Assembly: GCA_014075255.1 (NCBI GenBank)
Contig: CP046178.1
Coordinates: 1,504,894-1,568,893 of the forward strand
Direction: 5' to 3'
Origin: Gammaproteobacteria bacterium
GTDB taxonomy: Bacteria > Pseudomonadota > Gammaproteobacteria > UBA4575
Length of the DNA: 64,000 nt
Positions 32,437-52,106 of this stretch are shown in pieces. Made by a program: the position numbers and the translations under genes. How positions within the stretch are numbered: position 1 is the stretch's first letter; every line of letters begins with the position of its first letter. The notes beneath the pieces are model-generated. The model worked only from the letters and a program-made list of their open reading frames with translations. It had not been told where the DNA came from and ran no database searches.

Positions 32437-32808
32437 ATGAGACTTAGTAAATCCATAATTTACCTTTTAATACTTTCATTTATTTTTGTACAAATTTCAC
32501 CCGCTTTTGCTGGCATCGTTGGAACGGATAGTTATCTATCTGAGCAAACTATCCAGCAAGACCGTGAAGACTTACGCGCACTTATGTCACGTGACGAGGT
32601 TCGTTTACTACTAGAAACCAATGGCCTGACTATGGAGCAAGCACAAGCGCGTGTGGATTCTCTGACAGATAAAGAAGTAAGCCAGATGGCGAAGAAATTT
32701 GATGAATTACCTGCAGCAGGTGACGCAGCAGTGGTTGTTCTTGTGATCGCTTTAGTTGTATTGGTCCTTGAACTTGCGGGTATTACCGATATCTTTACCG
32801 GCATTTGA
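32437..32808 (+). CDS. PA2779-family-like small secreted protein with hydrophobic C-terminal tail
   Basis: Signal peptide ending AFA, then a ~70-aa soluble segment, a conserved ELPAAG motif and a 30-aa hydrophobic tail. Paralogous to 50316..50677. TGA stop overlaps the TTG start of the next gene. Confidence 0.6.
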   Translation: MRLSKSIIYLLILSFIFVQISPAFAGIVGTDSYLSEQTIQQDREDLRALMSRDEVRLLLETNGLTMEQAQARVDSLTDKEVSQMAKKFDELPAAGDAAVVVLVIALVVLVLELAGITDIFTGI

Positions 32809-33815
32809 TCGCCCGTAAAATATTTTTCATACTTAATAATGCCCGCTGTATTGCGGGCATTTTTTTGTTCTTAATCTCGCTTTCTGCATGCGTTGCGCCT
32901 CAAACTAAGCAATTACAAATAGAGCGCCCGCACGACCTACCGACCAAAGCGTTTATAAAAAACGTACCCTTTTACCCGCAACAGCAATTTCATTGCGGCC
33001 CTTCTAGCTTAGCCATGGCAATGAATTTTTATAGTAAAAATGTAACGCCTGAAAATCTTGCTAAAGATGTGTTCACTCCAGGCCGCAAAGGCAGTTTTCA
33101 AGCAGAAATGAAAGCAGCGGTACGCAAACGCGGAATGATTGCATATGAGCTCACTCCTGAACTGGTCTATTTACTCGCCGAAGTTTCGGTGGGACACCCA
33201 GTTATTATTTTACAAAACAAATCTATTAAATATTACCCTGTCTGGCATTACGCTTTAGTTATTGGTTATGACTTAAATAAAAAACAAATTTATTTACACT
33301 CAGGCACAAATAAAAATTACGCGGTATCAATGAGTGTGTTTGAATTTACCTGGAAACGTTCGAAACGCTGGGCGATGGCAGTGCTGCCAACAGACACATT
33401 ACCCAATGACCGCAATCTTATAAATGTATTACAAGCGGCAGTAGACTTAGAAGAAGTAGGCCAAGTCGAAGCCGCAAATCAAACGTATCAAACCATTACA
33501 AAACGTTGGCCAGATAGTTTAGTTGCCGTAATGGGTACTGCGAATACGCATTTAACGTTAGACAATCCTGATAACGCTACTAAATTCTATTTGCGTGCTA
33601 TTGAATTGGAACCGCAACGGGCAGATATCTATAACAATCTCGCCTATAGTCTACAAGCACAATCTTGTTACCAGTCATCATTACGTTCAATTAACTGTGC
33701 AATTTCTTTAGATCCCAGTAGTGCTGAATTCCTGGACTCGCATCGCGAAATCACTCAGTCAACCAACAAATCAACCCTAAAGTCTTGCCCGAGAATCCGT
33801 TGTGGCAGCCCATAA
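32805..33815 (+). CDS. PA2778-family-like C39 cysteine peptidase / TPR-repeat lipoprotein
   Basis: Lipobox LSAC. Papain-like C39 active-site context QQFHCGPSSLAMAM plus a downstream His (VWHYAL). C-terminal TPR-like repeats. TTG start is coupled to the upstream gene. Confidence 0.65.
   Translation: MIARKIFFILNNARCIAGIFLFLISLSACVAPQTKQLQIERPHDLPTKAFIKNVPFYPQQQFHCGPSSLAMAMNFYSKNVTPENLAKDVFTPGRKGSFQAEMKAAVRKRGMIAYELTPELVYLLAEVSVGHPVIILQNKSIKYYPVWHYALVIGYDLNKKQIYLHSGTNKNYAVSMSVFEFTWKRSKRWAMAVLPTDTLPNDRNLINVLQAAVDLEEVGQVEAANQTYQTITKRWPDSLVAVMGTANTHLTLDNPDNATKFYLRAIELEPQRADIYNNLAYSLQAQSCYQSSLRSINCAISLDPSSAEFLDSHREITQSTNKSTLKSCPRIRCGSP
32838..32866 (+). terminator. GC-rich stem-loop plus T-run embedded in the signal-peptide codons of the peptidase gene (possible attenuator)
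   Basis: aatgcccgc-tgtatt-gcgggcat followed by ttttttt. It encodes NARCIAGIF of the lipoprotein signal peptide. Confidence 0.4.
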
Positions 33816-49482: not shown

Positions 49483-49510
49483 ATGTCCGCTTTCGGCCAA
49501 TAGCGGACAT
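49483..49510. repeat. palindromic hairpin element, copy 1 (atgtccgct-N10-agcggacat)
   Basis: 9-bp perfect inverted repeat with a 10-nt loop. Near-identical arms to the copy at 50273..50300. Confidence 0.5.
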
Positions 49511-49526
49511 TAAACATTCCTTAAGA

Positions 49527-49802
49527 TTAATGAATTACATGCACAGGTTTAAGTGCTTGCCTACCCTGAAACTCTATATAAATACAAAAAGCCCCTTGAT
49601 GGTCGTTTACGGTTCCAATAACTACGTCGCCATTTCTAATTGCACATAACATTGAAAGCTCTGACTCACAAAATGTGCGTGCGACTACATCTATATTTTG
49701 CTCTACAGCTGTTTTAATTCTTTCGTACTCATCAGGTTTAAAGTTCACTAATGTCCGATTTACCAAGGGCTCCTGTTCCAATGAATGTTTAGTTGAATCC
49801 AT
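49527..49802 (-). CDS. hypothetical protein (low-GC insert)
   Basis: 91-aa ORF in AT-rich DNA bracketed by the two hairpin copies. No recognisable domain. Confidence 0.35.
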   Translation of the reverse strand: MDSTKHSLEQEPLVNRTLVNFKPDEYERIKTAVEQNIDVVARTFCESELSMLCAIRNGDVVIGTVNDHQGAFCIYIEFQGRQALKPVHVIH

Positions 49803-49879
49803 ACATCACTCCTAATCTTTAATACTTGTAAATATTAATGAGAATGATTATCATTTGCAAGTAGGCTAATGGAGTATTT

Positions 49880-50263
49880 ATGACTTTTTTCCTCAATGCT
49901 TGGCTAGAACGCGAAAATCCTATTTTGGAGCTAAGAGAATCCATTACAAATAGAATGGTTTATCATATTGAAGGTGACGTGTTAAATGATTGGCTAAATA
50001 AAGGCGAACTTTGTGTGAATGATTTAAATAGCATTGAAGAAACAAGCGAAGTTATTAGAGACTTACTGCTAAAAAGTATTACAGAAGATGTTTCCACCAA
50101 ACAAAAGTGCGACTTCCCTATTAATAATGTAATTAAATTTCCTCGTAGGTTTAGAAGGCCTAGCAAAGGGAATTCTAGCTCTCGAAAAAGTAATAATGTT
50201 ATCTATCTGTATTCATTACTAAGTAAGAGAATTTTAAAGTATCTTGATAATGCTATTTATTAG
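49880..50263 (+). CDS. hypothetical protein (low-GC insert)
   Basis: 127-aa ORF with a basic C-terminus, divergent from 49527..49802. Confidence 0.35.
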   Translation: MTFFLNAWLERENPILELRESITNRMVYHIEGDVLNDWLNKGELCVNDLNSIEETSEVIRDLLLKSITEDVSTKQKCDFPINNVIKFPRRFRRPSKGNSSSRKSNNVIYLYSLLSKRILKYLDNAIY

Positions 50264-50272
50264 ACAGTCCGA

Positions 50273-50300
50273 ATGTCCGCTTTGGGTCGAAAGCGGACAT
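50273..50300. repeat. palindromic hairpin element, copy 2 (atgtccgcttt-N6-aaagcggacat)
   Basis: 11-bp perfect inverted repeat with a 6-nt loop. Its arms share atgtccgct/agcggacat with copy 1. Confidence 0.5.
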
Positions 50301-50315
50301 CACAAAGAAAAACGT

Positions 50316-50677
50316 TTATTTAGCGAGCGCCAAAATAATTACAAGCAACACTAATATCAAAATAGCAGCTGCACCACCTATTCCACCTGCCGCAGGCAGA
50401 TCTTCGAAATTCTGCGCAAATACCCTTATTTCTTCATCGGTTAAGGAGTTAATACGCTCTTGTGCTTGTTCTGCAGTAACGCCATGTTGCTCTAAGAGAC
50501 TGCGCGCTTCAGCTTGATATAAAATTTGATAAAGATTCTCTCTTTTCAGATCAGTATATTGCTCTTGCAATATTTCATTCGTTCCAACCATTCCTGCATA
50601 TGCAGGCATAGTGTGAGTAAATACGAGTGCAAAAACACAAACATAAACAATTGCTAAATGTGAAAATTTAGTCATGG
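50316..50677 (-). CDS. PA2779-family-like small secreted protein (paralog of 32437..32808)
   Basis: Start taken at ATG 50677 (RBS AAGGTGAG). Signal peptide ending AYA. Shares MVGT..L.EQ, LLE..G.T.EQAQ.R..SLTD.E, F..LPAAG and a hydrophobic tail with the other paralog. Confidence 0.6.
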
Positions 50678-50727
50678 GCTCACCTTTTAATGTAAAAATA
50701 CTTGCGGACCGCAAAGTACACCAATTC

Positions 50728-51150
50728 TTAATTAGTTTTCTTTTTCTTAAAACGCTCAAACTTTAATTTGAAAATATTACCTTGCGGTACCGCATCATCT
50801 TCTACAATTAGATCATCAGATACTGCTTGACTATCACGGGTGGAAATCACACGTGCAGCTTCTTCATCTTGACAGGCCACTGGATCAGTGTCTTGATTAC
50901 GGTAATCTTCAGTCGTACAAGGGCGGAAACCTGGAAACACTTTTGATTCATAAATGGTAACAGTTTCACTACCACTTGCCTCTTGTTTTACCGGTGACTG
51001 CGTAGGTGGCGGGGTATCAATAACAATTTCTGGCGGCGGTAGAGCTTCCGAAGTTTCTTCTGCATTAACAACTCCAACAACTAACCATACACACAACATA
51101 ATCCACAAGGTGGACCATAAAGATCTATACATTAATCTACTCATACCCAA
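50728..51150 (-). CDS. hypothetical secreted Pro-rich protein
   Basis: Signal peptide. PPPEIVIDTPPPTQSP segment and two Cys. 140 aa. Confidence 0.45.
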   Translation of the reverse strand: MGMSRLMYRSLWSTLWIMLCVWLVVGVVNAEETSEALPPPEIVIDTPPPTQSPVKQEASGSETVTIYESKVFPGFRPCTTEDYRNQDTDPVACQDEEAARVISTRDSQAVSDDLIVEDDAVPQGNIFKLKFERFKKKKTN

Positions 51151-51206
51151 CTCCTCAGTATAAAAAGATTAAGTCTACCTGCTTAACCTTAAAATTATAT
51201 TAAGTG

Positions 51207-51914
51207 TTATAACTCTGCTTGTTTTCGCTTTGATATTTCTTCGTCTATCGCAGCGATGGATTGTTCCAATTCATTCACAGAATAAATATTTTGAATTAGA
51301 TACTTATCATGCTCAACCATGGCATAAGATTCATCTAATTCTTTTCGGTAACCACCAATGGCCGTATCCGAATCTTGCATATCTGACACTAATCTTTTAT
51401 GAAACTCTGGATTTTCATTAAATTTAAACATCATGGACATATAAACTGCCGAAAAACGAAAATCATAGGATTTATAGTCGCCAATTGAATGTACATCCTT
51501 GCGCGCCTCACGCATATCTACATTAAAGGTATTGCTATAACCCATCAGTGAATCACGAAACTTGCCTTCTATCTTATAATCTTCAATCATCACTGGAATA
51601 ACTTGCGCGATCTTCAAACGCACATCATCGTGAGCCATGATGGTTTCTAACAACCGTTGTTTAGCGACTTCAGGTTCATCGCTAGCTTGGCGAATTACAT
51701 CGAGATCTCGCTGTCGTGTTTCTCGCTCAGCATGCAGCTGCTGCATACTAAGACCGCCTAGATTCTCTGGGACCTTATGCAGTACCTTTACTCGATCTAA
51801 GATAGGAGACTTAATGGTCTCGCCCCCAGCAAAACTGGTTGAACTGATGAAAAGCATCAAAGTTATACATATGCCAGCATTAATTAGCCGTATTTTTCGC
51901 ATTCTTGGTTCCAT
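51207..51914 (-). CDS. hypothetical secreted protein
   Basis: Signal peptide ending SFAGG. Charged helical segments. 235 aa. Confidence 0.5.
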   Translation of the reverse strand: MEPRMRKIRLINAGICITLMLFISSTSFAGGETIKSPILDRVKVLHKVPENLGGLSMQQLHAERETRQRDLDVIRQASDEPEVAKQRLLETIMAHDDVRLKIAQVIPVMIEDYKIEGKFRDSLMGYSNTFNVDMREARKDVHSIGDYKSYDFRFSAVYMSMMFKFNENPEFHKRLVSDMQDSDTAIGGYRKELDESYAMVEHDKYLIQNIYSVNELEQSIAAIDEEISKRKQAEL

Positions 51915-52106
51915 GTTTTTGATTAGATGTATAAAATTCGACCGGCTAGTGAAATAGCGCTACCGTAGGCAAATTCTCTTCACCTATTATAAGGTCCTAA
52001 TGAGGTCTAAGATAGCAAAAGATTAGTACCAATAATCTATGCGAATTCATAGACTTAACAAATACGATACCAATTAATTTTATAAAGTTTTAACCATAAT
52101 TTAGCC

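Follow-up and report, generated by a model that had tools for sequence, protein, structure and literature searches.

The closest described relatives of the gene considered here are the members of the PA2779 family (DUF6627; type member Pseudomonas aeruginosa PA2779). No paper on the function of PA2779 or DUF6627 was found; in the literature, PA2779 is mentioned only because it neighbors bswR, and the one mention of PA2778 is as a candidate toxin of the T6SS, in a TraDIS preprint; neither an experiment nor a paper linking PA2779 proteins to PA2778 activity was found. The family is sizeable: when 1.84 billion cluster representatives (clusters at 50% identity) were searched with a family profile, 2339 members were found at E ≤ 0.001, nearly all of them 115–140 amino acids long, and the "small" secreted-protein family of the initial annotation is thus a family of 2339 such clusters. 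The DUF6627 gene lies directly upstream of a PA2778 homolog at loci L022, L023, L025–L031, L050–L052, L054–L056, and L058–L063, and outside the lineage discussed below most sampled copies adjoin the gene for this C39-type peptidase with TPR repeats, in each case directly upstream of it. Copies that have no such neighbor ("orphans") are also present in unrelated soil lineages (L044–L048), and they predominate in a methylotrophic, Thiotrichales-like lineage. The lineage is taken to be methylotrophic because the neighboring genes are mtdB, PEP carboxylase, and serine-cycle genes; its relatives are labeled Thiotrichales.

The DNA analyzed (the window; 64,000 nucleotides) comes from a member of this lineage and contains both arrangements. 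One DUF6627 gene belongs to a PA2779–PA2778 type pair. The other is an orphan that stands between argA and argE with two further co-oriented minus-strand ORFs, so that three products of 235, 138 (Pro-rich), and 119 amino acids are encoded there. The genes are as follows.

32437..32808, plus strand: peptidase-linked PA2779 paralog, 123 amino acids, of the "long" form ending LELAGITDIFTGI, with the motif LPAAGD (BLASTP, PF20332, NF033919)
32805..33815, plus strand: C39-like cysteine peptidase of the PA2778 family, carrying TPR repeats and an LSAC lipobox (NF033920, PF13529, PF03412)
50316..50675, minus strand: orphan PA2779/DUF6627-family gene, 119 amino acids plus stop (ORF list, PF20332, NF033919, paralog BLASTP)
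50728..51144, minus strand: 138-amino acid secreted Pro-rich protein with two invariant cysteines and a basic C-terminus (ORF, alignment of six orthologs)
51207..51914, minus strand: secreted protein of 235 amino acids (231 from 51902), all-alpha, and the conserved core of this gene pair (ORF, orthologs)

The orphan ORF (50675..50316) runs from ATG to TAA with its reading frame intact; its start had been placed at 50677, two nucleotides from the true ATG at 50675. Its product scores 80.4 bits against Pfam PF20332 (DUF6627; cut-off 27) and 83.7 bits against NCBIfam NF033919 (PA2779_fam; cut-off 40), and the 32437..32808 paralog scores 84.5 and 96.7 bits against the same two models. With both copies above the curated cut-offs, the initial annotation's identification of a second PA2779-like paralog holds. 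In BLASTP with composition-based statistics the two proteins are 44% identical over 90 residues without gaps (E 9e-30; residues 8–97 of the 119-amino acid protein). All three sequence blocks that had been picked out earlier (MVGT..L.EQ, LLE..G.T.EQAQ.R..SLTD.E, and F..LPAAG) fall inside this ungapped stretch, and since the alignment spans the soluble, non-hydrophobic core, the likeness is not limited to the signal peptide and membrane segment. There is no third DUF6627 copy and no second peptidase homolog within the window. The only PA2778-family gene there, 32805..33815 (317 bits against NF033920, cut-off 150), begins within the last four nucleotides of its DUF6627 neighbor (32805..32808) and lies 17.5 kb from the orphan copy on the opposite strand; it is the sole candidate trans-acting partner within the window. 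No peptidase homolog lies beside the orphan copy, as the initial annotation had said, and downstream of it argE is encoded on the opposite strand past a 0.97-kb spacer. PHROGs, PADLOC, and Rfam searches with the locus gave no matches. The product of 50675..50316 is a true second PA2779/DUF6627 copy, a lineage-specific duplicate that has no partner peptidase of the usual kind next to it, and an ordinary paralog in a catalogued family.

Conservation was assessed in an alignment of 141 sequences (139 diverse representatives and the two window copies). An alanine at position 27, the −1 position of the signal-peptidase site, is found in 135 of the 141 and is followed by G/A-[MIL]-[VI]-x-T, with T32 in 130. 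In the central part G65 and R74 are invariant, R54 is nearly so (134 of 141), and R45, T79-D80, and E82 are also among the best-conserved positions. Just ahead of the membrane helix stands L-P-A-[GA]-G throughout the family (P94 in 137 of 141 and A95 in 131; position 96 is G in 123 and A in 17). Beyond the helix two C-terminal forms occur: a long one with the motif [DE]-L-x-G-x-T-D-[IV]-F, and a short one, to which the orphan copy belongs, that ends with the helix itself or with one basic residue beyond it. The form of the tail was considered as a predictor of peptidase linkage and rejected, because long and short forms both occur beside the peptidase and as orphans. The parts of the orphan protein are encoded as follows.

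50595..50675, minus strand: signal peptide, residues 1–27 (MTK, a hydrophobic core, and AYA, then G28) (sequence, A27 conservation, AlphaFold2 helix 3–20)
50400..50594, minus strand: predicted periplasmic domain, residues 28–92, four short helices (AlphaFold2 model)
50373..50399, minus strand: LPAAGGIGG juxtamembrane hinge, residues 93–101, with the family motif L-P-A-[GA]-G (conservation, low pLDDT)
50319..50372, minus strand: C-terminal membrane helix and a single lysine, residues 102–119, the short form (tail listing, AlphaFold2 helix 101–118)

The signal peptide reads as Sec-type, and AYA|GMVGT fits the family pattern of A-x-A followed by G/A-[MIL]-[VI]-x-T. In an AlphaFold model built with 58 family members as input (mean pLDDT 68.5), the periplasmic domain is predicted to form helices at residues 29–52, 55–63, 68–77, and 80–91; residues 92–100 are of low confidence (pLDDT below 50 at 96–99), and a terminal helix at 101–118 is followed by one lysine. 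The C-terminus thus consists of LPAAGGIGG, AAAILILVLLVIILALA, and K, that is, the family motif and a single helix. The AAGGIGG that had been noted ahead of the tail is indeed present, its Gly-Gly at residues 97–98 of 119. Little importance attaches to this Gly-Gly: it is not the conserved feature, because the peptidase-linked copy in the window has none and reads LPAAGD, the family core being L-P-A-[GA]-G. The LPAAGD of the linked copy is also at odds with the classical double-glycine specificity of C39 peptidases. The orphan copy retains R45, G65, R74, T79-D80, and E82 and carries the substitutions D53Y and R54Q; glutamine or histidine at position 54 is also found in the intact lineage members P0020 and P0016. 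Its terminal 60 nucleotides are 93–98% identical to those of L001, L020, and L033. Because the C-terminal membrane helix is kept, the product is predicted to face the periplasm while tethered to the membrane rather than to be freely secreted, and the "secreted" label of the initial annotation should be amended in this sense. No fold or sequence relative of characterized function was found for DUF6627. A match of the DUF6627 profile to the RseA periplasmic domain (E 0.009, against PDB sequences) was set aside as compositional, as it involves a Q-rich stretch and the membrane topology is opposite.

The two upstream genes had been correctly described as co-oriented and encoding signal-peptide proteins; both ORFs are on the minus strand. 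The Pro-rich ORF had been listed from a TTG at 51150, and the likelier start is the ATG at 51144, 6 nt after GAGGAG, which gives 138 amino acids. This protein has no match in Pfam, NCBIfam, PHROG, or PADLOC, and C76 and C91 are invariant among its six aligned orthologs. The 235-amino acid ORF starts at 51914, and most of its orthologs begin four codons later (51902; 231 amino acids). Its product has 114 homologs and is modeled as all-alpha (pLDDT 81); the predicted fold matches only generic helical structures, and its profile found nothing below E 0.1 among PDB sequences. The pair is accompanied by a DUF6627 gene between argA and argE at L001–L005, L011, L013, L014, L020, L032, L033, and L035, and it occurs with neither a DUF6627 gene nor a remnant of one in L007, L008, L064, L065, and L066, also in settings where its flanking genes are not the same; in three of these five pair-only genomes the large contig that carries the pair has a PA2778 peptidase gene at another position. 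Because the pair occurs alone in these five, it is a separate conserved unit that is older than the DUF6627 gene, which was added in one subclade. On this conservation evidence the association of the three genes is coincidental, and the link to the two upstream genes is, as far as conservation can tell, not a functional one, as the pair exists without DUF6627 and stays intact where DUF6627 is broken.

The three genes are separated by 56 and 52 nt, and a Shine-Dalgarno sequence precedes each gene. Two further elements flank the orphan gene.

50273..50300, no strand assigned: REP-like palindrome ATGTCCGCTTT-N6-AAAGCGGACAT just past the stop codon, with no T run (folding, window count)
50701..50715, minus strand: weak hairpin and T run between the 138-amino acid and DUF6627 genes (consensus scan)

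The palindrome folds at −17.9 kcal/mol (z −3.3) and is present in two copies in the window where none is expected by chance; it could possibly act as a transcript-end hairpin. The same element recurs often near orphan copies in the relatives. The element at 50701..50715 was rejected as an intrinsic terminator (−6.6 kcal/mol, z −0.6). This hairpin is weak and, of the relatives, only the closest one (L011) conserves it, so transcription could read through into the DUF6627 gene; with the short gaps, co-transcription with the upstream pair is possible too.

Several orthologs of the orphan copy are broken. Those at L011 and L035 share a 1-bp deletion near codon 20 and a TAA at codon 82, that at L032 has a TAA at codon 82, that at L033 has a TAA at codon 81, and that at L020 has a TAA at codon 6 and a 1-bp deletion at codon 65; the L020/L033 type also exists in intact form (P0003). 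The sequences with these stop codons and frameshifts are metagenome-assembled genomes and contigs from metagenomes, and assembly error could account for some of the lesions; they lie at three different positions, and one lesion is common to independent samples. At the same loci the 231/235-amino acid gene is full-length at 85–91% identity and the ~138-amino acid gene is full-length at 73–77%. The dN/dS ratio of the orphan gene is 0.21 against L001 and 0.19 against L004, and the ratios of its neighbors (the 138- and 235-amino acid genes, argA, argE, and mtdB) are 0.02–0.08 where dS could be estimated. The orphan copy is thus under weaker purifying selection than its neighbors and has been inactivated repeatedly, in at least four relatives, which makes it accessory and probably redundant. 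A low dS (0.45 for DUF6627 and 1.4–2.3 for its neighbors) might by itself point to recent transfer, but the gene is short and raw nucleotide identity differs only modestly.

The relatives agree with the earlier observation that only one of several copies is linked to a peptidase. The metagenome-assembled genome CAYXVH01, for example, has three copies and one peptidase: L011 at the argA locus, L012 (127 amino acids, unlinked), and L022 beside the peptidase gene. In two relatives the peptidase gene and orphan copies are on the same contig (291,115 and 1,279,210 bp). In a neighbor-joining tree the orphans of the lineage form a sister group to the peptidase-linked clade and split into a long-tail group (127 amino acids) and a short-tail group (118–119 amino acids), the latter comprising the argA-locus copies and copies at other loci (L016, L018, and L019). 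No recurrent neighbor gene common to the orphan copies was found. Intact orthologs of the orphan copy, 46–81% identical to it, persist across many samples. The best 120 peptidase hits (of 261) include no PA2778 homolog from OZ252002.1, a complete chromosome with an orphan long-form copy (P0020); this absence is no more than a hint, since the peptidase of the window itself has no separate entry there either.

These observations can be combined into one account, to which as a whole we would assign a probability of about 0.6. An ancestral peptidase-linked gene gave rise to a sister clade of orphans with long (127 amino acid) and short (118–119 amino acid) tails, and one short-tail copy was inserted at the 3′-end of the unrelated and older two-gene module between argA and argE. 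Its product is predicted to be exported by its Sec signal peptide and cleaved after AYA, and the C-terminal helix to keep it in the inner membrane, with one lysine in the cytoplasm and about 65 acidic, helical residues exposed in the periplasm. These parts of the account, identity, topology, and evolutionary history, are very probably correct. The part that deals with mechanism is more tentative and may well need replacement: the orphan protein would be a membrane-anchored periplasmic partner or substrate, in trans, of the single PA2778 C39 and TPR lipoprotein, the disordered L-P-A-[GA]-G hinge would be the site that the peptidase recognizes or cleaves, and a cut there would free the helical domain into the periplasm. 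Such a role is suggested by the regular adjacency of the two genes and the overlap of stop and start codons at 32805..32808, by the conservation of a hinge that is disordered and adjoins the membrane, and by the presence of peptidase and orphan genes on the same contigs in two relatives. It is weakened by the LPAAGD of the linked copy, by the orphans of unrelated soil lineages, and by the lack of an OZ252002.1 homolog among the best 120 peptidase hits. For the DUF6627 proteins in general, the peptidase is a putative "processing enzyme" on the evidence of adjacency. It is conceivable, though unlikely, that DUF6627 and the PA2778 lipoprotein make up an undescribed Gram-negative periplasmic shedding or sorting system, in which small helical domains would be freed from tail-anchored proteins through cleavage by the lipoprotein at the L-P-A-[GA]-G hinge; in this lineage one enzyme would then serve several dispersed substrates, the orphan protein among them.

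Other readings of the locus differ mainly in what they make of its neighbors and of its state of repair. The three genes could form one operon for an envelope complex in which DUF6627 is the membrane anchor; they share a strand, short gaps (56 and 52 nt), and individual Shine-Dalgarno sequences, the hairpin between the second and third genes is weak (z −0.6), all three products have signal peptides, and the gene order is conserved at 12 loci (L001–L005, L011, L013, L014, L020, L032, L033, and L035). This is quite improbable nevertheless, given that the pair is conserved with neither DUF6627 nor a remnant in five other genome types, that the closest short-form relatives are found at unrelated loci (L016, L018, and L019), that at least four relatives have a disrupted third gene beside a full-length pair, and that the dN/dS of the third gene is about four times that of the pair. 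The same breakage and raised dN/dS, together with D53Y and R54Q at sites of which the second is arginine in 134 of 141 sequences, could instead mean that the orphan copy is an intact-looking duplicate that is functionally dead and heading for loss. Against this, it retains an undamaged frame, signal peptide, motif, and membrane helix, a dN/dS of 0.2 is still that of a gene under purifying selection, intact orthologs (46–81% identity) are present in many samples, and Q/H54 also occurs in the intact P0020 and P0016, and we therefore regard functional death as unlikely.

Two further readings concern the peptidase. If DUF6627 proteins were bacteriocin-like or signaling precursors matured at a double glycine by a C39 peptidase, the orphan would be an extra precursor gene; several precursor genes per processing enzyme are typical of such systems, the partner enzyme is C39-like, and Gly-Gly is present in the family consensus LPAGG and in the orphan copy. 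It is hard to reconcile this with a Sec signal peptide in place of an N-terminal double-glycine leader, a Gly-Gly near the C-terminus just ahead of a membrane helix, a peptidase that stands alone as a TPR lipoprotein instead of forming the N-terminal part of an ABC exporter, a peptidase-linked copy that lacks the Gly-Gly, and homology over the full length with no sign of the hypervariable core typical of bacteriocins, and the precursor reading is accordingly very improbable. Somewhat less remote, yet still improbable, is that LPA[GA]G, the membrane helix, and the basic end constitute a C-terminal sorting signal, with the PA2778 peptidase as a transpeptidase that joins the helical domain to an envelope component. 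This tripartite layout is the best-conserved part of the protein outside G65 and R74, the hinge is disordered, a cysteine peptidase is the regular neighbor, and one enzyme with dispersed substrates fits the gene counts in the lineage; but known sorting signals are borne by many unrelated cargo domains, whereas here they would be confined to one whole-protein family, many members carry TD[IV]F[PT]F after the helix in place of a basic cluster, no NCBIfam sorting-signal model matches at E ≤ 0.1, and there is no sign of transpeptidation. The account of a lineage-specific duplicate anchored in the membrane, with its tentative link to the distant peptidase, is preferred to all of these.

By itself the orphan copy adds little, being one more member of a catalogued family. 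The lineage as a whole is a natural experiment, with one peptidase-linked copy, several orphans, two kinds of tail, and decay of some copies. What is kept where no peptidase gene is adjacent is the signal peptide, the G65/R74 core, the LPA[GA]G hinge, and the membrane helix, and the Gly-Gly and the post-helix TDIF tail are optional. The impression of a three-gene module is corrected as well, the 231- and 138-amino acid proteins being encoded by a conserved unit of their own in methylotrophs. The copies in this lineage could help to address the role that the DUF6627 family plays with its peptidase.

Among systems of known function, LapG/LapA shedding offers a likeness of concept: a cysteine protease of the periplasm cuts an anchored protein of the envelope. 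LapG belongs to peptidase family C93, not C39, and LapA is a giant adhesin. The PAAG of the orphan hinge fits the LapG site pattern, (T/A/P)-A-A-(G/V), and this is no more than a lead; the DUF6627 consensus differs in being PAGG and not di-alanine. The double-glycine leader peptides of class II bacteriocins and competence pheromones resemble DUF6627 proteins in the C39-like class of the partner and in a Gly-Gly that follows an amphipathic helix. The DUF6627 proteins differ from them in having a Sec signal, a motif that is C-terminal and adjacent to the membrane, a TPR lipoprotein as peptidase, and a linked paralog that lacks Gly-Gly; in the orphan protein the signal is Sec-type, the Gly-Gly is at 97–98 of 119, and no C39-domain ABC exporter is encoded nearby. 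Nor does the orphan C-terminus appear to belong with the LPXTG, PEP-CTERM, or GlyGly-CTERM sorting signals, since no NCBIfam sorting-signal model matches at E ≤ 0.1 and homology among the family members extends along the whole protein.

The PA2779–PA2778 pair is nearer. The orphan protein is 44% identical to the DUF6627 member of the window's pair and retains the LPAAG hinge, but its gene is not immediately upstream of a PA2778 peptidase gene, the arrangement by which the two-gene system is recognized; the gene and the pair are 17.5 kb apart on opposite strands, there is no translational coupling to a peptidase, and the orphans form a clade of their own. It is nearest of all to the PA2779 family itself. 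From that family it differs in having no adjacent PA2778 gene, in a short tail that ends two residues after the helix, and in the change of R54 to Q, and it shares with the family a full-length match, a size of ~115–135 amino acids, the signal peptide, the G-x-V-x-T mature N-terminus, the G65/R74/TD.E core, LPA[GA]G, and the membrane helix.

The orphan DUF6627 gene (50316..50675, minus strand), which stands apart from any peptidase gene, has at its 3′ side a segment of about 760 bp (49511-50272) that is flanked by two copies of a REP-like palindrome and contains two divergent small ORFs:

49483-49510, REP-like palindrome, copy 1, ATGTCCGCTTT-N6-AAAGCGGACAT
49802..49527, minus strand, small ORF of 91 aa inside the bracketed segment
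49880..50263, plus strand, small ORF of 127 aa inside the bracketed segment
50273-50300, REP-like palindrome, copy 2, ATGTCCGCTTT-N6-AAAGCGGACAT

These are the only two copies of this palindrome in the whole 64-kb window. The segment is missing at the same position in the syntenic relatives that were aligned across it (loci L001, L004, L020, and L033), neither ORF has a tblastn match in the loci searched (L001-L063), and neither matches Pfam, PHROGs or PADLOC; the bracketed segment looks like a small, strain-specific insertion. In related genomes the same palindrome family, as GTCCGCTTT-N6-AAAGCGGAC and variants, is dense near the orphan DUF6627 copies (loci L006, L012, L017, L038, L040, L043, and others), reaching up to six copies per 6.7 kb. 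Thus, orphan copies tend to be situated in intergenic DNA rich in repeats.

In the orphan gene, the stretch coding for the membrane helix (60 nt, 50311-50370) shows 93-98% identity across relatives, compared with 68-88% for the rest of the gene. The gene has an NG86 dS of just 0.45, and the values for neighboring genes are 1.4-2.3. The helix-segment identity and the low dS could result from conversion events between gene copies, from constraint on codons, or from noise in a short gene. Two C-terminal forms recur in the DUF6627 family; in the long form the membrane helix precedes the conserved motif [DE]-L-x-G-x-T-D-[IV]-F-[PT]-F, and in the short form the protein terminates at the helix. Across the family, neither form correlates with peptidase adjacency.

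Upstream lies a conserved gene pair of unassigned function, whose products are a 231/235-aa all-alpha secreted protein (51207-51914, minus strand) and a protein of roughly 130 aa with two Cys residues (50728-51144, minus strand). In the methylotroph lineage the pair is oriented divergently from argA. Distant homologs of the larger protein (219 aa, about 30% identical) are found on TARA ocean contigs (L009 and L010), where they are solitary and adjoin serine-cycle genes. The divergent promoter region between argA and the 235-aa gene (about 51930-52050) is 85-92% identical to those of L001, L020, and L033, a conservation at least equal to that of the flanking coding sequence in these comparisons, and it matches no Rfam family.

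DUF6627 may occur without a PA2778 peptidase, since the complete 2.76 Mb chromosome OZ252002.1 (L006/L015) carries an orphan long-form DUF6627 gene and contributes no PA2778 peptidase to the top 120 of the 261 peptidase homologs. In the window, the peptidase gene overlaps the stop codon of the DUF6627 gene upstream of it by 4 nt:

32805-33815, plus strand, PA2778-family peptidase gene, lipobox LSAC

Pseudomonas aeruginosa PA2778 is a candidate H1-T6SS toxin in a TraDIS preprint (10.1101/733030), a role that sits oddly with a lipoprotein bearing a signal peptide.
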